A DNA stretch of 64,000 nucleotides from contig OY762209.1 in assembly GCA_963665295.1 (NCBI GenBank), positions 2,400,001 to 2,464,000 of the forward strand. The letters are read 5' to 3'. The notes below the pieces were generated by a model that ran no database searches, had not been told where the DNA came from, and was given only the letters and a program-made list of their open reading frames with translations. Shown in pieces: positions 47,062-64,000 of this stretch (position 1 is its first letter; each line of letters begins with the position of its first letter). Made by a program: the position numbers and the translations under genes. The stretch comes from Syntrophorhabdaceae bacterium (GTDB lineage Bacteria; Desulfobacterota; Syntrophorhabdia; Syntrophorhabdales; Syntrophorhabdaceae).

Positions 47062-47127
47062 ACTTCTATCGAAGGTTTGGTGAATATACTGCCACTGCTA
47101 TTGCAGAATAAACGGGAGGGGCTTTTT

Positions 47128-49122
47128 ATGGATTGGGGGGCTGCGAAGAGGTATTTTTTCCTAAGGGACGGATTCAGAACAGTTGTCCTGGGGGTCTTTG
47201 TCTGTTCGATTCTTATTCTTACCTCCGTCACGGCCTTTTCCGGGTCGGACGGGGGTTTGTCGGCGAGCGGGCCGCGTCGGCTTGTCTTTAGAGCGGACCC
47301 GAACCTGTCGAGTTCGACCGTGGAGCCGCCTGCGGGATTTCTTGAGGAGCGGGCGAGGGGCCTCAGGTTGTCAAGGACCCAGTTTGCGATAACCTATGCC
47401 GCCAAAGGCGCCAAGCACAGCGAGTACGAATGCGGGGAATGGCCCGCGCAGGCCAAGGAAGCCCTTAATTACGCCACGGACATATGGGCATACTATCTCC
47501 GCTCCACGCCGAAGATAAATATCGAGACATGCTGGGTTGTGAGCGGTATGGATGCCGATACTCTCGGAACTGCGGATGAACCCGATTTCCGTCACGATTT
47601 TGCAGGAGCCAAAAAGCAGAAGACCTGGTATACCATTGCCCTTGCGAACAGCCTTCACGGGTCTGATCTCCAGCCCGGCCACACGGACATGTACCTTTCC
47701 TACAACAGCAAATTTGGATGGTACTTCGGCACGGACGGCCAGGTGCCCGACGGCAAATACGACTTCGTGTCCGTGGTCCTCCATGAGATCACCCACGGTC
47801 TCGGCATGTTCGGTACCGCGAGTGTCGACGGGAAGACGTTGAATGGAAGCTGGGGGAAAAAGGACGGCACAAACAATTATCCCGATGCATGGGACGGCTT
47901 TATCGAAAACGGGAACAAGCAAAGTCTCGTCGATACTCAGGTATTTGCCAACCCTTCCGAGGCGCTTGCGAAAGAGCTTACGGGACAAAACCTTTTCTTC
48001 AACGGTCCGGGCGCGACACAGGCGAACGGCGACAAAACCGTCAAGATATATGCGCCTGCAGAGTGGAAAGACGGTTCGAGCTATTCGCACCTCGATGAAC
48101 AGACCTTCAAGGACTCGGAAGATTCCCTCATGATTCCTGCCATCGAACCGAAGAAGTACAAGCACTCCGCGGGTCCGGTGATCCTCGGTATCCTCAGCGA
48201 TATGGGTTGGACGGCTACCGCGTATACCCTTAATGTAGTCATGGCAGGCAACAAGAAAGGGTCCGTCAAGGCGACGGGCCTTACATGCGGGAGCAATTCC
48301 ACGTGCAAAGGAGGCTATCAGAAGGGGGAGACGGTGGACATCACCGCCACCGCTACCTCGGGCTCCGTCTTTTACGGCTGGACCGGGTGCACTTCCGTGA
48401 GCGGTTCCGTCTGCCGTGTGACGATGAACGGGTCTATGACCGTCACCGCCACATTCGATTCCCGGCCTGCGGCCTCGGTAAGTCCCGGGTCCATCAACTT
48501 CGGAGCAACCGACATTGCGGGTCCCTTCACCTCCAGGAAGATCACCGTCACGAATAAGGGCACCGCGACCCTCAACATCACTTCCGTGGCCGTTTCCGGA
48601 GCCTTTGAGGCCCGGAGTAACGGCTGCACCAGCCTCGCGGGGAATGAGACCTGTACGGTGGAGGTCGCCCCCAAGCCGGAGAGTGCAGACTCCTATGGCA
48701 CAAAAACAGGGAAGGTCGTGATGACGTCAAATGACCCCCATTCACCGGATACGGTAAAACTGTCGGTGAACTTTTCACCTCCCAATATCTCGGCGCCTTC
48801 GACAGTAAACTTCGGCACCGAACCCATCGGCGATTCCGATACGAAGACGATTACCGTAAAGAATACGGGTGTATCCACCCTTACACTCACCAACATAAGC
48901 CTCAGGAATTCGAGTTCGGCCCTTACGCTGCATTCCAGCGGGTGCGCGGACCTTACGAAGAACGCGCACTGCAACATGTCGGTTGAATTCACCCCCGAAG
49001 ATACGACCCAGGTGACCGACTATATCGACATCACCTCGAATGATCCGGACTACAGCGGAAAAGTGAAGACTATTACCGTCACCGGCAGGGGAGTGGAGGC
49101 AAAGAGAAAGACAGGGAAGTGA
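47128..49122 (+). CDS. Secreted zinc metalloprotease-like protein with divergent InlB-B repeat and two ASH/choice-of-anchor D Ig domains
   Basis: Signal peptide, LHEITHGLG, SSYSHLDE, GSVFYGWTGC, two ITVxNxG..L.I Ig repeats. Confidence 0.78.
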   Translation: MDWGAAKRYFFLRDGFRTVVLGVFVCSILILTSVTAFSGSDGGLSASGPRRLVFRADPNLSSSTVEPPAGFLEERARGLRLSRTQFAITYAAKGAKHSEYECGEWPAQAKEALNYATDIWAYYLRSTPKINIETCWVVSGMDADTLGTADEPDFRHDFAGAKKQKTWYTIALANSLHGSDLQPGHTDMYLSYNSKFGWYFGTDGQVPDGKYDFVSVVLHEITHGLGMFGTASVDGKTLNGSWGKKDGTNNYPDAWDGFIENGNKQSLVDTQVFANPSEALAKELTGQNLFFNGPGATQANGDKTVKIYAPAEWKDGSSYSHLDEQTFKDSEDSLMIPAIEPKKYKHSAGPVILGILSDMGWTATAYTLNVVMAGNKKGSVKATGLTCGSNSTCKGGYQKGETVDITATATSGSVFYGWTGCTSVSGSVCRVTMNGSMTVTATFDSRPAASVSPGSINFGATDIAGPFTSRKITVTNKGTATLNITSVAVSGAFEARSNGCTSLAGNETCTVEVAPKPESADSYGTKTGKVVMTSNDPHSPDTVKLSVNFSPPNISAPSTVNFGTEPIGDSDTKTITVKNTGVSTLTLTNISLRNSSSALTLHSSGCADLTKNAHCNMSVEFTPEDTTQVTDYIDITSNDPDYSGKVKTITVTGRGVEAKRKTGK

Positions 49123-51872: not shown

Positions 51873-53615
51873 ATGAAACGATTTATGATCTAAGGTTTAT
51901 TTGCTCTTTTCTTGCTGCTCGGCAGCATCGGACAGGCTCTGGCCTTCACCACCATCGATACGACGCCTTATTGGAATGGAACCGCGTATATCTCGTCCTT
52001 CGGCTACCCGGATACCGCAACCTATGGACAGGTGATCACCACGCCCACGAACACGGATGTGGTGCTTCGAAGTTTCTCCTTCCACATGAAGCTGCCTGAG
52101 ACCTGCACTTTCAGGGGCTATGTCTACGCCTGGGATGGAACGAAGGCCACGGGGACGGCCTTGTACAGAAGTTCAACCATGGCGACACTCGGTTCCGGTA
52201 CTTTTGAAGAGGTTGACTTCAAAACAGAGGGAATCACGCTGGCTGCGGGTACCCAGTATGTGCTTTTCGCCAGCGTTTCCGAAGAGACCGGTTCAGGCTA
52301 CGGTAACTGGGGGTCTACCGCGGAGACCGCGTATCCCGGCAGCGGGAACAGCTTCGTATACATCAACAACGGCACCGATACGACACAATGGACAACGACC
52401 AACTGGTCGAATATTGGGATGGACCTCGCATTTAAAGCCACTTTTGTGACCCCAACCCGAAAGGTCCTCTACTGGAATGACGGCGCCGTCGGAACGGATT
52501 ACCTGAAGCAGGCTCTTGTCAATGTTGCAAACACCTATTCCACATCTACGACGATTGCCGCGGATTTGGCCGATTTCGAAACCAAAGTTGCTGCAGGCGG
52601 ATGGGATCTTGTTGCCCTTATGATCCAGGTAAACCCTCATTCCACACCGAATTTCAATAGCTATGTCTCCGCGGGTGGAAGGGCCGTTCTTGCAGATTAC
52701 AGCAAGGATGCCGAAAGGGGAGCGCTTTTCGGAGTGACCTATACGGGGAGCGATAATCAGGATGTTGTCAGGATTACCGATGATTTCCTCTCTGACGGCG
52801 TGGTTGAGCTTATGTCTTTAACCAATCCCGGCTATGGTATTTTCAGTATGGGGATGGCCGCGACGAGTGGAGCCGGAAGCGGGCCTGTTCCGAACGGAGA
52901 TGCCGCCATTGTCGTGGGAGCCAACGAAAAAACTATTGTGAACGGTTTTCTCGCAGATACCCCCACGTCCGCTGATGACGGCGTTACTTTCTTCGAAAAC
53001 CAACTTCTGATGATCTTGCCGTTTATCGTAGCCAGTCCGAACGGAGGAGAAAGAGTGCCCGCGGGCGGCGTTTTTTACTTAGCCTGGATACCTGAATCCG
53101 CAGCGAGCTTTAATGTCGATATTTCAACAAATAAGGGTTCTTCATGGAAACCCCTTGTACAACAGTACGGAGGCAGTGTCTTTGAATGGCGGGTACCCCT
53201 TCAGAAGGACAACATGCCGAACGGTAAAATCAGAGTAACCGCTTTTAATGAAAACGGCGTGAAGATCGCTCAGGATGTATCGGACAGTCCGTTCACCATC
53301 GAAGTGGTGAGGCTGATATCGCCCAACGGCGGAGAGACGCTTACATCGAACACCGCGAACACGATCATGTGGACAACGAATAAAACCATGGGCGATGTGG
53401 TAAGCACACAGCTGTTCTACACGTTAAATGGAAAGAAATGGTTTCCCATGACCATTCTCGGCGGTAATCCGGGCACCTATTCCTGGACCACGCCGACTGT
53501 AACGGCCGCCACTGCAACGTGCAAGGTAAAGGTTCTGCTTAAGAGTGCGGCTGCCGCCAAGGGCAAGACTCTCGGCACTGCCATCAGCGAGGCTTCTTTC
53601 ACAATCCAGCCGTAA
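51873..53615 (+). pseudogene. Secreted multi-domain surface protein with a nonsense codon in its signal peptide
   Basis: RBS plus ATG at 51873 reads MKRFMI*GLFALFLLLGSIGQALA in frame with the 567-aa ORF; two SPNGGE Ig-like repeats near the C-terminus. Confidence 0.7.
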
Positions 53616-55264: not shown

Positions 55265-55831
55265 CTATCCGGGCCGGGCGATCCGTTGCGTAGGCCCCTC
55301 CGAAGGGAACCGGGCCTCGTAGACCTTACCGCCTGTGGACACATACTCGATGGAAACCGATATACGCCTGAGGAGGGAACCGAAGGATTCGAGATTAGGG
55401 ATTTGGTCCTTTATGCCTCCAAACAGGAGGATTTCCTGCCCCGCGCCAAGGGTTGTTCCCTGTAGAGCGGGTATCGTGAGCAGTTCGAACCCGATCGGCT
55501 CACCCGGGAAGCCGATCCTGGAAATCAGACTCCACGCCTCGCTTGGGTTGCCGATCCGTTTCCGGTCAAAATGGATACGGATACCGGTGATCTTTGCCGG
55601 GCGCATTCCGTGGTTGCGAATGAAGAGGCCGAAGTGTGAAGCTTGCGGCCGGGAGTCTCCCACTTCTACGTCCAACAACGGCCGGAACGCATCCTCAGAC
55701 CTCCACCCGGCATTGACCAGGGCAAAGATGGAAACGAGAAGGGTTATGGACGCTATTACGAACTTCGGGTCCCAGAGGCCCTGCACCATAGTAACCTTCC
55801 AGTCTCCTCTCTTGTCATCCGGTGCATTCAT
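55265..55831 (-). CDS. Hypothetical single-TM protein
   Basis: N-terminal hydrophobic helix; last gene of a tightly packed operon. Confidence 0.6.
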   Translation of the reverse strand: MNAPDDKRGDWKVTMVQGLWDPKFVIASITLLVSIFALVNAGWRSEDAFRPLLDVEVGDSRPQASHFGLFIRNHGMRPAKITGIRIHFDRKRIGNPSEAWSLISRIGFPGEPIGFELLTIPALQGTTLGAGQEILLFGGIKDQIPNLESFGSLLRRISVSIEYVSTGGKVYEARFPSEGPTQRIARPG

Positions 55832-55838
55832 ACGAACC

Positions 55839-56381
55839 TCACTCGAATTTGATGAAGTTTACATATATCTTGCACGCTGAATTGCGGCGAAAGACAAACT
55901 CTGTAATTACATGGAGTTTCTGCAGGTCCGCTGTGACAAAGTCCCGTAAGGTGAAACGGTATGGTGAATACTCTCGCGTCAAGGTCACCGTCTTTTTCGT
56001 CTCCGACCCGTCATCAGGATCGGTGCGGTCTTTTATGCCTATATCGACCCGCTCTCCGCCCCGCGCCCCCCTCATTGATATGACGAGGGTATCGAAGTTC
56101 GAGAAATTCTTCGATTGCCGTTCTCCGGGGGAGGGACGGGGCTGTCCGACCGTGACAAGGACCGCGCCCCAGGTTTGTCCTCTCGGGTAAGCCATGACGA
56201 ACTCGTTCCCCCTGTCCTTCAGCCAATTATGCACGCCGCGGGACGAGTTGACCCCCATGCCATAGCCTTGCCTGAGGTCTCTCCCGTCATATATCACGTA
56301 CTCCCGCGGTGATTGCCCGAAAGAGACGGCAGGCATGACCAAGAACAAAGCGAGTATGAATAAGCTCCCGGACCTTTTCAT
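55839..56381 (-). CDS. Secreted protein with a probable carbohydrate-binding (galactose-binding-like/CIA30-like) domain
   Basis: Signal peptide; YP.GQTWGAV, NFS.FDTL.I.MRGA.GGE.V.IGIKD, Y.F.L.DF pattern. Confidence 0.6.
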   Translation of the reverse strand: MKRSGSLFILALFLVMPAVSFGQSPREYVIYDGRDLRQGYGMGVNSSRGVHNWLKDRGNEFVMAYPRGQTWGAVLVTVGQPRPSPGERQSKNFSNFDTLVISMRGARGGERVDIGIKDRTDPDDGSETKKTVTLTREYSPYRFTLRDFVTADLQKLHVITEFVFRRNSACKIYVNFIKFE

Positions 56382-57277
56382 TGAGACACCTCCTTGACCG
56401 GGACCGTTACGGGGCTTTGTTCTGCCCTGTTCCCGGCGTCGCCTTCATATCTCATGGTAAGGTTGTAGGGCCGCCCGCCGCGAGCGGCTTCCTTGGCTTT
56501 CGGCTGCGTTTCAGGCCTGCCTTTCGGGCCGCCCGACAATATTTCCGCGATGATCCCACAAAACCCGGCCTCAACATCGGCCCACGGGACGGCCCTAAGG
56601 ATACTCTCTTTCGTCTCCTCATACTTCTCGGACCGGCTTGGAGACTGTCGCAACGTTTGCCCGGACGGCACGAGAAGAACAAGCAACCTGGGACCGTTGT
56701 GTCCCCTGGAGACTGATCGACGAGACCTGTCGCAGGTTTCCATACCGTCGCTGACGACGATGTGGAAACCTTCCCCGGCCGCGCTCACCGAGATACGCCT
56801 GAAGACATCATTCATGGCTGTACAGGAAGACGAGGCCTTGGGGCGCAAGAGGAGCGCCTTCTTTAAAGACTCACAGACGTTGAGAAGCTTACCGTCCACT
56901 TCACGTTGCCTGGAAGCCTCTCTCCGGCGGCACTCGCTTTCGCCGTAATCCTTGATCGCCCTGAATACGCGAGCTTCGTTACGCCGGTTCAAATCGCGGC
57001 AAAGGTTCGCCCTATCCGGGACCTGTTCGATAGGGAAGGTTTGGGGTCCGGTAGTCCACCCGTCGCTGCCGAAGTGGTACACTCTTACCCTGTCGATACG
57101 AAGGCGGTTTATCACCTCGGGCAACTGTTCGGTCAAATTCCTGATTGCCTCGTGCATTCCGTCCCAATTCGTGCTTTTGGTATCGTCAATCCAGATCGCC
57201 AACTCGGCCGCGTGAAGGACCGTCGAAAAGAACAGCATAGCAGTGACGAAGGCAATGTTACGCAATATCGGTTTCAT
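56378..57277 (-). CDS. Secreted vWA-like protein
   Basis: Signal peptide; MIDAS-like IDDTKS ... CT ... VVSDG. Confidence 0.6.
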   Translation of the reverse strand: MKPILRNIAFVTAMLFFSTVLHAAELAIWIDDTKSTNWDGMHEAIRNLTEQLPEVINRLRIDRVRVYHFGSDGWTTGPQTFPIEQVPDRANLCRDLNRRNEARVFRAIKDYGESECRRREASRQREVDGKLLNVCESLKKALLLRPKASSSCTAMNDVFRRISVSAAGEGFHIVVSDGMETCDRSRRSVSRGHNGPRLLVLLVPSGQTLRQSPSRSEKYEETKESILRAVPWADVEAGFCGIIAEILSGGPKGRPETQPKAKEAARGGRPYNLTMRYEGDAGNRAEQSPVTVPVKEVSQ

Positions 57278-58028
57278 GTGCGCCTCCTCTTTCATCAAGG
57301 TCGAAGACTGCATGGATCCAGTCCAATACCCCTTCAAACTCGCTGCGCGCGATCACCAGGTCGGCATAGGCCTTCGCATAGCGGGACGACCACGCGAAAT
57401 GCTGATGGGCTGCCAGGAGGGTGCCGGAAATAAAAGGCAAGATGAGGCCGACACCGCCCAGACAGGGACCGACCAGAGCGGACAGGAGGCGGAGCAACCC
57501 TTCGGAAGGGCTACGGGTCATCAGGATTACCGCCATCAGCAAAATGAACACGGCCAGACTCCAGAAGGCGATGCGCCGTAGCGCGCGAGCGGTCTTTCGT
57601 GGCTGACGGCCCGTGGTTACATAGGATATTGCCCCTTCGAAAAGAAATGAAAGGAGGGCGGCCACAGCCACCCCTATCGCGGCGGCCCCTGCAGGCGGCA
57701 CGTCAAGCCATGATTGTGAGAGTAATCCCGCGACCGCAACCTCCAGGGTCAACGCAGAATACGCTCCTGTCGCCGCCCAGCGGGAAAGGGCCATGTCGGA
57801 CCGAATAATCGCGGGCTCTGGAGAGACCGGGTCTTCCCCGGTCCTTAACCTGTATTCACCGGCGTACTCATCCCGAAAGGATTTTGCCTGCAGATCCAAC
57901 GTTGATACTTTGGCTTTCGCCACCGGGCGCAGTTCTAACGCTTTGTTTTTTTGGCTTAAATGGTCTCCTGAATCTTGAATTAACCTTGAAAAGCTGCGGG
58001 CCGAATACTTGCTGTCCTTTCCCACCAT
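57258..58028 (-). CDS. Four-TM membrane protein of unknown function
   Basis: AGGAGG RBS; helical N-terminus then four hydrophobic segments. Confidence 0.7.
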   Translation of the reverse strand: MVGKDSKYSARSFSRLIQDSGDHLSQKNKALELRPVAKAKVSTLDLQAKSFRDEYAGEYRLRTGEDPVSPEPAIIRSDMALSRWAATGAYSALTLEVAVAGLLSQSWLDVPPAGAAAIGVAVAALLSFLFEGAISYVTTGRQPRKTARALRRIAFWSLAVFILLMAVILMTRSPSEGLLRLLSALVGPCLGGVGLILPFISGTLLAAHQHFAWSSRYAKAYADLVIARSEFEGVLDWIHAVFDLDERGGAHETDIA

Positions 58029-58458
58029 AGCCACCTCCTGAGCTTTTTGTGGTAAGTAAACAATGAACCTGTTCGCGCCGGCGCTCTTTATGTCTTATTA
58101 TTGTGTACCACGCTTGTGAAAAGCTTGTCAAGTGAAATAGAAACAAATTTGAGACAACTATATAAACGTGAAAGCAAAACAATATGAGAGCTAGATAGAA
58201 TCAAATACAACTAAAGAGAGAACATATATAAACTATTACAAAATGTAAAATGACAAAGTGAAACTCAGTACAAACTAATATTGGTCGCGGTAGAGACACG
58301 TTTTCATTGCACAAGGAGGCTGAAACAGTGTATGGAGCGAGGAAGATACAAGGGATATTCAGTAGTTTGCGGGGAGCTTGCAAGATTTATGTAGAAGTAT
58401 TAAACTTAATGTCAAGCACCGTATGCCGATAACATGAGAAAACAGGAGATTGAGGTAC

Positions 58459-59460: not shown

Positions 59461-62265
59461 TTATTCCCCTCCTTTCAGCCGCGCCGCGGGGTCGCCGAAA
59501 AGGGTGTAGGTCCGGAGCATGTTCTCCGACCCTCCTTTTGAGAAAGCCTCGATCTTGGCGCCCGTGGTAACCTTGCCGATCACCCGTTCCCCTGCTTCAA
59601 AGAGGAAGGAGAAGACGGCGTTTCCGAGTACCGAAAAATCAGAATAAAGGCCGAAACCGCTCGGTGAAAAGGCCGCTATGGCGGCGGTCTTCTTGGGGAC
59701 CACGAAGGACTCACCCATGGAGTAGGACAAGGGGAAACCGAAGAATCCGTTCATGCAATCGAAGGTAAGCACGAAGGTAAGCTTGCCCGAGTTGGAGATG
59801 CTCGCGATATTTTTTGTCTCGAATAAAGGCGCAAAAGACCATTGCGAGTATGCCCCGTGACCCACGTAGGTGGTAAGGAGCATGCCCTGCTTGATGGTGG
59901 AGGTGATATCCTTTGTGGCCTGAGGCCACTTTTTTTGCGGATATGTCGAGAGGTAGACCTTCTTGGCGGTCATCCCGCTCGGCAGATATGAAATATAACT
60001 CTCGCTCATTGTCTCAAAAATAGGCTCTCCCCAGTCGGCCGCGAAGAGGGATGCCGCGGGGTTGTAAGTGGAGAGACTCTCGTAGGCCAGGACCTTTTTC
60101 ACCATGTCCGAGACCGCGGCGGCGCTCGCGGCAGGTATCCGCCCGATGATCATTTCGGGGAGCGCGTCCTCTCCCTCCACCGCGACATACCAGTTGTCGT
60201 CCGGCAGATGTTCAAGACCGTTATTGTTTACGAAAGACAGGTGGGCGGGCACCCGGTTCTTCTTTTTCGTGTTATAGTAGTTCCTGTAATCCCAGTTTGC
60301 GTCCCCCATAAGGAGCACGTAGGTCGGCGCGGGTTTCTGCCAGCTTGCATAGGCATAAGTGAGGAAATCCTTGATGGCCTGGGGGTCGGGAGACCCAAAG
60401 GCGAATTCATCGTAAATGTCCTCAACTGCGACCGCCATCACTCTGAGGCCCTGCTTCTGCCGGGCGGCGACGAGGGCGGTGACGGAAGGAAGGAACTCTT
60501 TCGCGGTGATGATGATGTAGTCCGCCCCATTGGACTCGTCTTTCAGACCCGCGGGACTCCATGCGGCGAAGGAGGCAGGAGGTTTCACCGTTTGAGTTGT
60601 CACGAGATAGGATTTCCGACCTGAAATCGTGTCCTCAAAGGTGAGTGTTCCACGGGTGAGAGTCCAGTTGACGACAGTGCCTGCGTTTGCCGGGTCGGTA
60701 ACATCCAGGACCTGCACTTTCGGGGTGCCCACTTTGGTGATGCCCATCTTCTTTCTGCCTTCTCCCTGAACGGTGAAGGCGAGCTGGTTGGCCGCGGCCT
60801 CAAACCGTCTCCAGTAGGAGACTTCGATCCAGTTGAGATAGAGGCTGTCCAGAGATGCTTCCGTGTCTCCGGGTAATTCTATGGTAACGGTATTCTTCCC
60901 TTCCTTGAGAAGGCTCATGGGTATCGTGGCTTCCTGAATAAACTCGATGGTCCCATCCCAGTGCTCATCCGATACGGGCGTGCCGTTCAACGATATCTTC
61001 GTATGATGGTCCGGATCCGGTGTGACGGAGGAGATACCTCTGAATTTCACCCGTATCGTTCCCGTTCCCGTGGTGGCTCCTATGGCGGGTATGGTTACGG
61101 TATAGCTCTTCTTGTCGGGTGCGGTGAACTTGTCCCAGAACCAGATGTCCGCGTCGGCTTCGGGCACTTCCAGCCAGTATTGGGTGTTCTGCTCGGTGTG
61201 CACGGTGCTGAGGAAAGAGCTTTGCGCTTCTCCCTGACCGGTGACGGTCCCGTCAACGGTGGTCATTCTTTTCCCTGAGTCGCCTCCCCACACGAGGTAA
61301 TAGACATTCGTATCGGTAAATGTGGTGTTGAGGCCCTCTGCATAGAAATCCATATAACTGCCCTTCGCAAAGCTGTCCGGCGAGACGACCCTGATTGCCA
61401 TCTCCTCTTCTCCATTAAGAAGGCGCATGGTATTCGCGGTTATCGTTTCCCCGACTATGCCTATCTTTTTGAGGTCATTGTAAGTGATGCGGTAGAACCC
61501 GTCGTGGTTCACCATGATCTTGACGCCCGTAGGTGATGCAACAGCCAGGGAACGGGGGCGGCCGGACCCCGCGGTTTCATTACCATAGGCGGGAGTGTGG
61601 TTGATGAGGGTATTTTGAAACAGTTGACCGTACGCGTTATGGGCGGAGGAGACTGATGGGCGCTGCTCCGGAGCAAGGGGGTTTTCGAAAAAAACCTTTA
61701 CAGTAATCTTTTGCCGGCACAACAGGTCCCTTGTGGAGGGGTTCCATTGAAATGGATGGAATATGACCCTCGCCACAGCGGTCCCCCGCATGGTCCCGAC
61801 GCGTTCCACCTTTGCAGTGTCAAAAGGAAGAGGCGCGGAGGAAGCATATACGGATTCGTTGATAACGTGCCGGGTGGTATTGAGGTCTTCTCCGGAACGT
61901 TCCAATGTAGGAACAGGAAGCACAAGAAGGCCGGGAATCGTAGAGGGGGTGTCCCCGGTGACGGCAACCGTGATATTGCCGGTAGGGGGCACTTCGATGA
62001 GAACAGCGGCGACGGGCAGTTCCGGATGGCCGGAGAGGACTGTTGTGGCCCATTTCGGCACCCGCACCCGTGAGTAGGAAACCCCCTCCGCATAAACCTG
62101 TTCTATGATGGGGGAAGGGGTGGTAAGTTCAAGGGTGAGTCCCCCGGCATCGGCAGCGATAAGTTTGACATCCGGAGTCCCCCCGTGAACCGGGAAGGCG
62201 GCGAATAACAGGGTCAGGGTCAGGATCATGCCGGAGGCAAGGACTGCTGATAGTGAACGGGACAT
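59461..62265 (-). CDS. Peptidase C25 (gingipain/PorU-like) secreted cysteine protease
   Basis: Signal peptide, C25 propeptide (GHPELP), ADYIII, IYDEF, YVLLMGD, IGRIP, catalytic YVGHG and FDC, YTLFGDP. Confidence 0.88.
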   Translation of the reverse strand: MSRSLSAVLASGMILTLTLLFAAFPVHGGTPDVKLIAADAGGLTLELTTPSPIIEQVYAEGVSYSRVRVPKWATTVLSGHPELPVAAVLIEVPPTGNITVAVTGDTPSTIPGLLVLPVPTLERSGEDLNTTRHVINESVYASSAPLPFDTAKVERVGTMRGTAVARVIFHPFQWNPSTRDLLCRQKITVKVFFENPLAPEQRPSVSSAHNAYGQLFQNTLINHTPAYGNETAGSGRPRSLAVASPTGVKIMVNHDGFYRITYNDLKKIGIVGETITANTMRLLNGEEEMAIRVVSPDSFAKGSYMDFYAEGLNTTFTDTNVYYLVWGGDSGKRMTTVDGTVTGQGEAQSSFLSTVHTEQNTQYWLEVPEADADIWFWDKFTAPDKKSYTVTIPAIGATTGTGTIRVKFRGISSVTPDPDHHTKISLNGTPVSDEHWDGTIEFIQEATIPMSLLKEGKNTVTIELPGDTEASLDSLYLNWIEVSYWRRFEAAANQLAFTVQGEGRKKMGITKVGTPKVQVLDVTDPANAGTVVNWTLTRGTLTFEDTISGRKSYLVTTQTVKPPASFAAWSPAGLKDESNGADYIIITAKEFLPSVTALVAARQKQGLRVMAVAVEDIYDEFAFGSPDPQAIKDFLTYAYASWQKPAPTYVLLMGDANWDYRNYYNTKKKNRVPAHLSFVNNNGLEHLPDDNWYVAVEGEDALPEMIIGRIPAASAAAVSDMVKKVLAYESLSTYNPAASLFAADWGEPIFETMSESYISYLPSGMTAKKVYLSTYPQKKWPQATKDITSTIKQGMLLTTYVGHGAYSQWSFAPLFETKNIASISNSGKLTFVLTFDCMNGFFGFPLSYSMGESFVVPKKTAAIAAFSPSGFGLYSDFSVLGNAVFSFLFEAGERVIGKVTTGAKIEAFSKGGSENMLRTYTLFGDPAARLKGGE

Positions 62266-62357
62266 ATGATGGCTCCTTCAAATTACGGCAGATCGTTGCG
62301 TCTTCTACGCCGGGCGGGGCGCGATGCGTCGGCCCGGCTGAAGAAAGACGGATGTCA

Positions 62358-64000
62358 CTATTTGATCTGCACCGGTACGGGACCGTGGAGAGCGCTTTTG
62401 CCGTGGGTATCGATATCTTCAAGCTGATAATAATACGTTTTTTTCCGCTGCACACCCTTGTCGGTATAGGTATACGAGGCTCCTTTGACGACGGTTCCCT
62501 TTGCGGGGATGATCCGCGCATTGACCCGTTCGTATCCGCCGTTTGCGCTTACCGACCTTACGAGGTAGAAACCTGCATTCTCGAATTCCGAGGCAGTCTT
62601 CCACTGAAGGGTGACCTTTCCTCCGCTGTATTTCGCGGTGAAGCTTTTGAGGGTGATGAGTGTGTACTGAACCTTGAAATTGGCCGTTATTGATTTGCTT
62701 GCCGTCATGGTGACCGTGCAGGTTCCCGTGCCCGAGCATCCTCCGGACCAGCCGGTAAAAGTCGAACCGGCGGCAGGGGTAGCAGTGAGGGTGACCACGG
62801 CATCCGTCAGGAAGCCGGCGGAACAGACGGCTCCGCAGTTGATGCCGGCGGGAGAACTCGTGACCGAGCCTGAACCTGTGCCCGACTTGGAAACGGAAAG
62901 AGAGAAGCCATTGTCCGTGCAAACCGGCCACACGTGGAGAGGGAAGCCGGTTTTGGGGGGACTGGCTGTGCCGCCTCCCTGCATCTCGATGACCCATACG
63001 GTGGTCGAGTCCAGCAGACGCGTGGTGGATGACCACGATCTTTCCGAATGGGTACCCGTAAAGGGGTTGCCCGCGGGGAGGGGAGGGTCATATTTGGAGC
63101 GGTCAAAAAGGCTCAGGAGTTCCTTCCTGTTCGGAAGACGCCAGCAGGAGAGACCTGCGTAATTCTGGGCATTCAGGCAATCCACGTAGTCGAGAGCCTC
63201 GCGCCAGATCTTGTTCACGGCCGGGGCACATGCCGCCGGTCCCGGTGTATTCATATCTTTCGTCCACATGAGACCTGTAAGGTTATCGGTGACCGTTTCG
63301 TTGGCGTGTTCGGTAAACCGTGGGGACGGCCATGCCACCCCGGCCTGAATCTCCCCGTCCTGACCGGTACCCGCACAGGCAATCACGCTGCCTGTCGCAT
63401 TATAACACACGGTCTGTCCTGTCTTCGGAAGGGACCCGCTGTTGCCGCGCACGGGCCACACGTAGCAGGCGCTGCCCTTGGTGCTGACAGTCACCCCGCC
63501 TCCGTTCGATGTGCTGAGGGTCCAGTCGTAATCATGGGCACCGGACCTCGCTAATGTCGTGGATGAGCAGTATAAGCCCGTTTTTACATCGGTAAACCCT
63601 TCCGAGGGCGACATCAACCATGCGGTAATGTCCGCCTCGCCCGCATCTACGAGGCTTTCCAATTCGCTGATGTTCGGGAGTCTCCAGTCGGTATAGCCGC
63701 AAAGACTGAGGGCATTGGCATAGCTGAGGGCGGCGTTCCAGGTCATTGTAGTACCCGCGAGATTCGCGCTCTTCGGCCACATGAGGCCCGTAAGGTTGTC
63801 CGTTATACAGTCTGTTTCCGTACCGGTTCCTGCAATGAAACGTGGGGAAGGCCATACCGTCCCTGCCTGAATGTCCCCGTCCTGGCCGGTATCCGTGCAT
63901 GATATCGGGTCGGCGCAACTGCACGTTTCGCTATAGCACGTTGTCTGGCCTGTCTTGGGTAAGGCGACTGTTCCGGCGGCGTGACCGAGCGAAACCACAC
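62358..64000 (-). CDS. DUF1566 (Lcl) repeat protein with InlB-B-like repeat and C-terminal Ig-like domain (start outside window)
   Basis: Two LPKTGQT..DNLTGLMW..WRLPN..EL repeats; GSTFTGWSGGC; terminal ITLKSFTA..WKTASE..HGPV domain. Confidence 0.85.
   Translation of the reverse strand, partial: VVSLGHAAGTVALPKTGQTTCYSETCSCADPISCTDTGQDGDIQAGTVWPSPRFIAGTGTETDCITDNLTGLMWPKSANLAGTTMTWNAALSYANALSLCGYTDWRLPNISELESLVDAGEADITAWLMSPSEGFTDVKTGLYCSSTTLARSGAHDYDWTLSTSNGGGVTVSTKGSACYVWPVRGNSGSLPKTGQTVCYNATGSVIACAGTGQDGEIQAGVAWPSPRFTEHANETVTDNLTGLMWTKDMNTPGPAACAPAVNKIWREALDYVDCLNAQNYAGLSCWRLPNRKELLSLFDRSKYDPPLPAGNPFTGTHSERSWSSTTRLLDSTTVWVIEMQGGGTASPPKTGFPLHVWPVCTDNGFSLSVSKSGTGSGSVTSSPAGINCGAVCSAGFLTDAVVTLTATPAAGSTFTGWSGGCSGTGTCTVTMTASKSITANFKVQYTLITLKSFTAKYSGGKVTLQWKTASEFENAGFYLVRSVSANGGYERVNARIIPAKGTVVKGASYTYTDKGVQRKKTYYYQLEDIDTHGKSALHGPVPVQIK

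Follow-up and report, generated by a model that had tools for sequence, protein, structure and literature searches.

The end of a 64,000-nucleotide stretch of a Syntrophorhabdaceae genome (the window, G000:C1:2400001-2464000, where G000 is the source genome and C1 its contig) raises the question of whether a PorU-like peptidase of family C25 can process C-terminally tagged proteins outside a type IX secretion system (T9SS). There, the gene for such an enzyme follows a gene whose product ends in a module of about 100 residues. We found that this module and the enzyme are linked both phyletically and by gene neighbourhood, and consider a direct functional partnership of some kind between them very probable. 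Our preferred reading, to which we give a probability of roughly 45%, is that the enzyme is a dedicated processor of exported proteins tagged with a fibronectin type III (FN3) module: it would bind the folded module, cut beside a threonine and resolve the resulting thioester on an amine of the cell envelope. A tag-directed cutting enzyme is the best reading of the data, and a sortase-like one is likely; cleavage and surface anchoring by the pair, as suggested in the initial annotation, are inferred.

Three minus-strand genes form the cassette, in the order cargo B, cargo A and the C25 gene, with 92 bases between the last two (Table 1). All three products begin with a hydrophobic, signal-peptide-like segment. 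The genome (5.51 Mb, one contig, 98.1% complete) belongs to a diderm, with a BamA match over the cut-off and four secretins.

The catalytic part of the enzyme matches the full Peptidase_C25 profile with 262 bits against a cut-off of 23, and the histidine and cysteine named in the initial annotation are both in place. Every motif quoted there was found at its position, including KIMVNHDGFYRITY (61480-61521), MAIRV, FYAEG and DTNVYYL; absent from that account was the gingipain-type propeptide. Approximately 330 residues between the propeptide and the catalytic domain match the NCBIfam PorU profile (NF033707) from its start, the match beginning at residue 244, and the best solved structure by sequence is PorU itself (6ZA2, E = 1.5e-15, residues 377-930), with gingipain R ranking behind, so the proposed resemblance of the pre-catalytic region to PorU holds. 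The NF033707 score is 287 bits, under the cut-off of 420, and covers profile positions 4-733 of 1095. Positions 734-1095, which include PorU's own C-terminal domain (CTD), are unmatched; the protein terminates 8 residues past its GDP motif and, as previously noted, lacks a T9SS CTD. Against the PorU2 profile (NF052324), the enzyme scored 201 bits, with a cut-off of 450.

PorU orthologs carry a conserved arginine 32 residues after the catalytic cysteine, which the accessible part of PMC4560394 proposes as a sortase-like feature on the basis of alignment, not of experiment. In our alignment this column holds arginine in 7/7 PorU-length Bacteroidota proteins, in 0/13 long PorU2-like paralogs, most of which share a small-x-Gly motif there, and in none of the 32 CTD-less enzymes. 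An unrooted tree built with FastTree from 52 rows sets the 32 CTD-less enzymes, all from outside Bacteroidota, apart from the rest (branch support 99). PorU has a branch of its own (support 100), as do the long PorU2-like paralogs (support 84), and the closest grouping of the local enzyme is with two enzymes from other families. A relative labelled Thermodesulfobacteriota is 41% identical to it. Judged by sequence, the local enzyme is PorU-like and not a PorU, because its profile score lies below the cut-off, the arginine is missing and it belongs to a separate side of the tree.

The upstream DUF1566 protein, cargo A, ends as the initial annotation described: two stretches assigned by Pfam to Lcl_C (PF07603, the DUF1566 of that annotation) are followed by a Flg_new_2 repeat and the module. 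Genome-wide, the module occurs exactly twice, at the ends of cargo A and cargo B (68% identical), both directly upstream of the only C25 gene. It belongs to no family in Pfam or NCBIfam; among 36 members scanned, weak matches were scattered, with at most four members per family, and none matched the T9SS type A CTD profile (TIGR04183 / PF18962) at E<=0.01. AlphaFold2 modelling returned a confident β-sandwich (mean predicted local distance difference test, pLDDT, 93.4) with residues 1-6 in coil. The top Foldseek match was 3MPC (Fn3-like, E = 1.7e-4), and a VIA fold search gave the FN3 domain of Ihog (Z 10.9, root-mean-square deviation 2.5, 100 aligned). Both searches rank FN3 domains at the top, with Z reaching 10.9 and 95-100 residues aligned and none standing out, and the absence of a CTD row from these lists is no evidence of a different fold. 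On this model, the module is an uncatalogued domain of predicted FN3 fold. Its earlier comparison with the Ig-like domain preceding many T9SS CTDs is supported in that the module is related to a pre-CTD domain (the LPVEL type, discussed below); its predicted fold is FN3-type.

At E<=1e-5, 305 proteins match the module, and in 117 of the 121 proteins examined the last copy lies within 30 residues of the C-terminus; it is thus not a chance finding. The passengers are mutually unrelated and belong to many different Pfam families, and even a plain gingipain-like protein (P0065) is among the tagged cargo. Some proteins carry two or three modules. Cargo A gives the impression of a host-type passenger to which the module has been grafted, because the five paralogs of its Lcl part in the source genome and dozens of Flg_new-like proteins all have other C-terminal ends. 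At E<=1e-10, 19,165 cluster representatives match, a count that takes in plain FN3 repeats; the nearest named atlas cluster is Por_Secre_tail (0.86), a lead only, and the other look-ups gave unnamed clusters.

Table 1. Features of the cassette (window positions unless a contig position is given; IgSF, immunoglobulin superfamily).
Feature	Position	Strand	Description
C25 gene, 934 aa	59461..62265	-	Signal-peptide-like start, propeptide 28-201 (Propeptide_C25, PF08126), PorU-type N-terminal domains ~244-575, catalytic domain 583-930 (Peptidase_C25, PF01364), no IgSF/CTD tail
FSPSG motif	59656..59670	-	Gly870 at the position of PorU's conserved Arg
Cys837 (FDC, motif 59755-59763)	59755..59757	-	Aligns to 6ZA2; invariant in 45/45 aligned relatives
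His803 (YVGHG, motif 59854-59868)	59857..59859	-	Aligns to 6ZA2; invariant in 45/45 aligned relatives
Cargo A, 560 aa	62358..64000, start codon 40 bases past the window end	-	Starts like a signal peptide, then two Lcl_C stretches and a Flg_new_2 repeat; ends in the module
Terminal module, ~100 aa	62361..62675	-	Predicted FN3-type β-sandwich, pLDDT 93; no Pfam/NCBIfam family
Thr460	62661..62663	-	Coil just before the first module strand; candidate cut on either side
Cargo B, 278 aa	G000:C1:2464426-2465262, outside the window	-	Unnamed passenger and second module copy

The distribution of the pair carries most of the argument. We surveyed 251 genomes of the host's phylum (>=85% complete), with thresholds for enzyme and module chosen after seeing the tables. 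The enzyme matched in 17 at E<=1e-10; 15 of these matches were long (E<1e-75), and the two weak catalytic-domain matches were set aside. The module profile matched 37 genomes at E<=1e-6, 17 of them at 1e-11 or better and 20 through weaker, partial FN3-like matches; the boundary is narrow, the weakest accepted match (9.9e-12) adjoining an enzyme gene and the best rejected one lying at 4.7e-11. On these terms, the module is present in 14/15 genomes with a long enzyme versus 3/236 without, and enzyme and module are adjacent or fused in 9/15. The sole enzyme genome without a module is G013, where the contig begins inside the enzyme gene; its congener G054 has the module as an upstream fusion to the enzyme. 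As a control, the passenger domain PF07603 was found in 100/251 genomes, 11 of those with the enzyme. Within the host's own order (96 genomes), all four enzyme genomes have the module near the enzyme, three reaching the threshold and the fourth carrying modules just upstream in broken frames, while the module is found in 0/92 enzyme-less genomes, including three of the same genus, none of which has either partner.

Chloroflexota gave the same picture. Among 201 genomes, 31 matched the enzyme (30 in the catalytic domain, one in the propeptide only) and 29 the module; all 29 belong to the 30 whose match covers the catalytic domain, and the module occurs in 0/171 others. In the one catalytic-domain genome without a module, the enzyme match is partial. 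The phyletic and neighbourhood link anticipated by the initial annotation is thus borne out in both phyla. In two further surveys, a PorU-like enzyme was found in just 3/79 metagenome loci (L056, L089, L090), many of them short, and a profile scan of genome contigs with a two-sequence alignment yielded 13 loci, 12 with the Bacteroidota-type domain, to whose neighbourhoods we attach little weight. 'C25' labels obtained on metagenome loci with P0065 as query were discarded, owing to the module that P0065 itself carries.

Enzyme and module might also travel together without contact, both depending on a third factor such as an envelope polymer or the product of kinase, radical-SAM or lasso-like genes. 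In a neighbour survey of 33 hand-chosen proteins, the place immediately upstream of the enzyme is taken by a gene for an HprK-related kinase in 6 loci (L056, L089, L104, L105, L106, L108), by radical-SAM genes in 3 and by an Asn-synthase/lasso-cyclase-like gene in 1, which speaks for this explanation. The source cassette, however, has none of these genes, its genome's only kinase match belonging to a different cluster at a distance of about 2 Mb; a need for a linked kinase or lasso cluster was therefore rejected for this host. Moreover, the two genes stand alone next to each other in hosts with relatives that have neither (the same-genus genomes above), they are fused in several, and their hosts may have BamA and secretins or lack them (G002 has neither). 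We regard co-travel as quite improbable. Flanking genes in many hosts also include radical-SAM/SPASM and signal-peptidase-like genes (L099, L112 and L113 among the loci listed). Elsewhere in the source genome, unlinked to the C25 cassette, G000:C1:380818-393255 holds six tail-collar-like paralogs (identified by eye) beside PqqD-, Asn-synthase-, HprK-, sulfotransferase-, radical-SAM-like and ABC genes.

A T9SS in the host would change the interpretation. In the source genome, SprA, GldN, PorV and the type A CTD were searched for and no T9SS marker was detected; PorK/L/M were not searched for. Specifically, SprA/Sov (TIGR04189) was found in neither this genome nor 16 others, with G001 as positive control; GldN/PorN (PF19841) in 0/24 genomes and PorV (NF033709) in 0 in the source genome, both with positive controls; and the type A CTD (TIGR04183) in neither the source genome nor G002; a Flammeovirga control was positive in every one of these searches. 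Weak, sub-cut-off PorV-family matches occurred in three other genomes of the phylum. In a genome that is 98% complete, these results support the T9SS-independent setting previously proposed. That the enzyme is homologous to PorU and the module to the pre-CTD domain would also be expected of a T9SS remnant or part; the marker results, the intact catalytic residues and the separate tree side of the CTD-less enzymes argue against this, and we consider it very improbable and already largely refuted.

The linker before the module offers a candidate cut site. We compared 337 distinct modules with a first strand, excluding those below 55-60 bits or lacking that strand, a set biased to close relatives of the query. 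Among the 276 terminal modules, threonine precedes the first strand in 262, in coil outside the predicted fold of the AlphaFold2 model, with proline directly before it in 139. The next residue is L in 131, A in 68, V in 47, I in 13 and S in 4, and Ile or Val stands two places past the threonine position in 273. Cargo B has serine at this position. Behind the terminal module, lineages differ in their short tails: 149 are PRL-type, 46 are YLPL-type, 60 are of other kinds and 21 modules have almost no tail.

According to the accessible parts of PMC10202324 and PMC4560394, PorU cleaves the C-terminal domain after T, E, D or N and before G, A or S, and joins cargo to an amine of anionic lipopolysaccharide (A-LPS) or to free amines; the specificity of its cut site is low in the portion of PMC5445135 available to us. 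Threonine precedes the cut in 9/17 mapped P. gingivalis sites, one being EPT/AT, and G, S or A follows it in 16/17 (Table 2 and accessible text of PMC4560394). Two registers would fit the local linkers. One is T↓L-I; the other, with Y↓T-L and Y↓S-L, comes closer to PorU's preference for a small and then an aliphatic residue.

Under the preferred reading, cargo A, cargo B and the enzyme would be exported through Sec and the enzyme's propeptide removed; the enzyme would then recognize and bind the folded FN3-type tag and cut in the threonine-containing linker before it, in cargo A at T↓L or Y↓T. Transpeptidation would pass the cargo to a cell-envelope amine, as PorU does, here without a type IX translocon or CTD. 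The numbers fit one enzyme serving many substrates: three enzyme-bearing genomes of the phylum have at least 20 modules each, and in five there are 11 to at least 20 module matches versus one to three enzyme genes.

Several observations weigh against this reading. The kin genomes are not independent, so Fisher values for the co-occurrence overstate it. In three genomes the module is present and C25 was not found by three queries: G104, G144 and G196 (93% complete, at least 20 modules), the last being a real exception unless its C25 locus is unassembled. Non-terminal modules make up 61/337 of the set, and some modules directly follow a signal peptide, leaving little to cut off. At the threonine site, A or S follows in just 72/276 modules and Leu in 131, as in both local cargos. 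The PorU arginine is missing from the local enzyme as from the other CTD-less ones. Finally, neither cargo nor the enzyme has a membrane anchor, no window past the signal-like start exceeding a hydropathy of 1.7, and the three-gene cassette contains no acceptor gene.

The last two points speak above all against anchoring, and bear on whether the reaction ends in hydrolysis, tag removal simply releasing or maturing the cargo. The missing arginine is shared with gingipains (accessible part of PMC5445135), the local cassette lacks an anchor, and in several relatives the order is cargo-module-transmembrane tail, so that a cut would free the cargo from the membrane. The enzyme nevertheless keeps its 330 or so residues of PorU-type N-terminal domains, which lie outside the gingipain matches, and the role of the arginine is, in the available text of PMC4560394, an alignment-based proposal. 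We judge cutting without anchoring rather unlikely.

Other architectures suggest that the module might instead plug into the C25 protein uncut, as in a cohesin/dockerin-like hub or an activating partner. The commonest arrangement is cargo-module-short tail. In some fusions (L097, L112, L181-L184), however, cargo, module and enzyme form one protein without a propeptide, the module standing at the propeptide's place, and in Chloroflexota (L003, L109, L111, L115) a protein with a signal peptide, module, linker and transmembrane segment is encoded directly upstream of a short, propeptide-less enzyme. These N-terminal, tethered modules and the proteins with two or three copies favour docking; the excess of modules over enzymes, the invariant catalytic dyad and the conserved threonine outside the fold speak against it, and we judge non-covalent docking unlikely.

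L180-L184 (G655, G657) hold fused cargo-module-module-enzyme genes, three copies in one genome and several in broken frames. Four Chloroflexota genomes encode small membrane or lipoprotein-like proteins with a module lacking the first strand (L003:5685-6143, L118, L119, L120, L129, L115:14518-15081); the two of these that were scanned had no Pfam match, and they are possible strand-complementation partners. At the C-terminus of one enzyme and of one module protein (L098:4136-7411, L102:8890-9783) stands the CFI-box-CTERM (NF041770), so that other sorting tails stack behind both alike.

Bacteroidota provided a second view of the module's relatives. In 121 genomes (>=90% complete, long-paralog classes counted by hand), NF052324 matched 87, of which 49 have a paralog frame of at least 1500 aa and 38 PorU-length proteins only; 34 had no match. 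A profile of the LPVEL-type domain matched 51 genomes, namely 48/49 with a long paralog, 2/38 with PorU-length proteins only and 1/34 with neither; it thus follows the long PorU2-like paralogs and not canonical PorU by itself. Where PorU2 exceeded its curated cut-off, the domain was present in 14/14 genomes. A self-match was ruled out, as the domain stays below 22 bits in every one of the 13 long paralogs and the 7 PorU proteins; the genomes carried no kinship labels, so shared ancestry is not separable from functional coupling in these counts. At the register of the module threonine, all 13 LPVEL-type copies read L/T-P-V/I, and a further CTD-like stretch follows, of approximately 75-95 residues in most. 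In one locus (L161:3-9597), an LPVEL-domain cargo adjoins a long PorU2-like paralog.

We tentatively suggest, as a possibility that we hold less probable than not, that C25 sortases have a second, undescribed branch, which uses the FN3-type module as its recognition signal: a portable, T9SS-free cut-and-anchor cassette in Chloroflexota and deltaproteobacteria-like hosts, with Bacteroidota PorU2-like paralogs processing cargo at the LPVEL domain. T9SS cargo would then be routed to two enzymes by two stacked signals, the LPVEL domain and the CTD. Membrane-tethered modules, with their free N-terminus, could serve as acceptors, so that the cargo would leave a soluble tag for a tethered one; this part stays speculative because a signal-peptidase site in register with the threonine site, read by eye, is clear in just one of six tethered modules (L115).

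The cassette is bordered by LuxR-type and threonine synthase genes at one end and by a DeoR regulator gene at the opposite end. A sigma-70-like site (TTGACA-17-TATTAT, G000:C1:2464070-2464098) is a consensus match only, the region having 4 such sites against a shuffled mean of 4.1. Divergent from the DeoR regulator, four co-oriented minus-strand genes without a Pfam match occupy window positions 55265-58034, near which GC content is lowered (0.44 at C1:2458000), and 51912-53615 encodes an exported-looking protein of 567 aa, also without a Pfam match. Prophage-like tail genes with a Phage-tail_3 match (L001, L002; G000:C1:2473248-2488382) start about 8 kb upstream of the cassette. The dozens of exported-looking Flg_new_2-repeat proteins across the genome (for example, window 47077-49122) end in ASH/Cep192-like or other β domains with Lys-rich ends, possibly a host-native terminal signal.

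If the preferred reading is right, the pair represents a new protein-sorting system for Chloroflexota and diderm deltaproteobacteria-like bacteria, shows PorU-type chemistry to be separable from the T9SS and gives a common uncatalogued domain a testable function; with one enzyme and two soluble cargos, the cassette is also a convenient unit for reconstitution. For the uncharacterised PorU2, which NCBIfam names as putative only, the Bacteroidota counts suggest a direct hypothesis; they also bear on what decides whether an effector is released or attached, an open question in the accessible part of a 2023 review (PMC10202324). No description of the enzyme-module pair was found in the full-text literature, where coverage of subscription papers is poor; a term search of the myxosortase preprint gave no mention of it, and look-ups by module sequence and for a PorU2-LPVEL link returned nothing.

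Among known systems, PorU (6ZA2) is similar in its His/Cys dyad, its N-terminal domains, the ratio of one enzyme to many C-terminally tagged proteins and the threonine at the candidate cut. It differs in having the CTD and conserved arginine that the local enzyme lacks, and the local enzyme, at 287 versus 420 bits, has a gingipain propeptide; SprA, GldN and PorV were not found in the source genome, and the local tag is FN3-type by prediction, without a CTD-profile match. PorU2 (NF052324, a putative T9SS sortase paralog) and the long paralogs share the absence of the arginine (0/13) and, through LPVEL, co-occurrence with a related domain, but have frames of 1500-2400 aa in a T9SS-bearing phylum, and their partner domain has a CTD-like stretch behind it and reads L/T-P-V/I versus P-T-A/L-I in the module. 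The unrooted tree does not show which of PorU and the PorU2-like group is the nearer relative. The gingipains RgpB and Kgp (PDB 1CVR, 4IEF, 5MUN) have the same propeptide and catalytic families and likewise no PorU arginine, whereas the local enzyme has the additional PorU-type residues mid-protein and no IgSF domain or CTD.

LPXTG-, PEP-CTERM-, GlyGly-CTERM- and MYXO-CTERM-type signals consist of a short motif, a transmembrane helix and a basic tail. MYXO-CTERM is described as tripartite in the accessible part of PMC11980579. As far as the sources available to us describe them, the LPXTG/SrtA, PEP-CTERM/exosortase, GlyGly-CTERM/rhombosortase and MYXO-CTERM/myxosortase pairs resemble the present one in combining a C-terminal signal with a dedicated protease, many substrates to one enzyme, in a patchy distribution. 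Unlike theirs, the local signal is a folded domain of 100 residues, usually without a helix and followed by short, lineage-specific tails.

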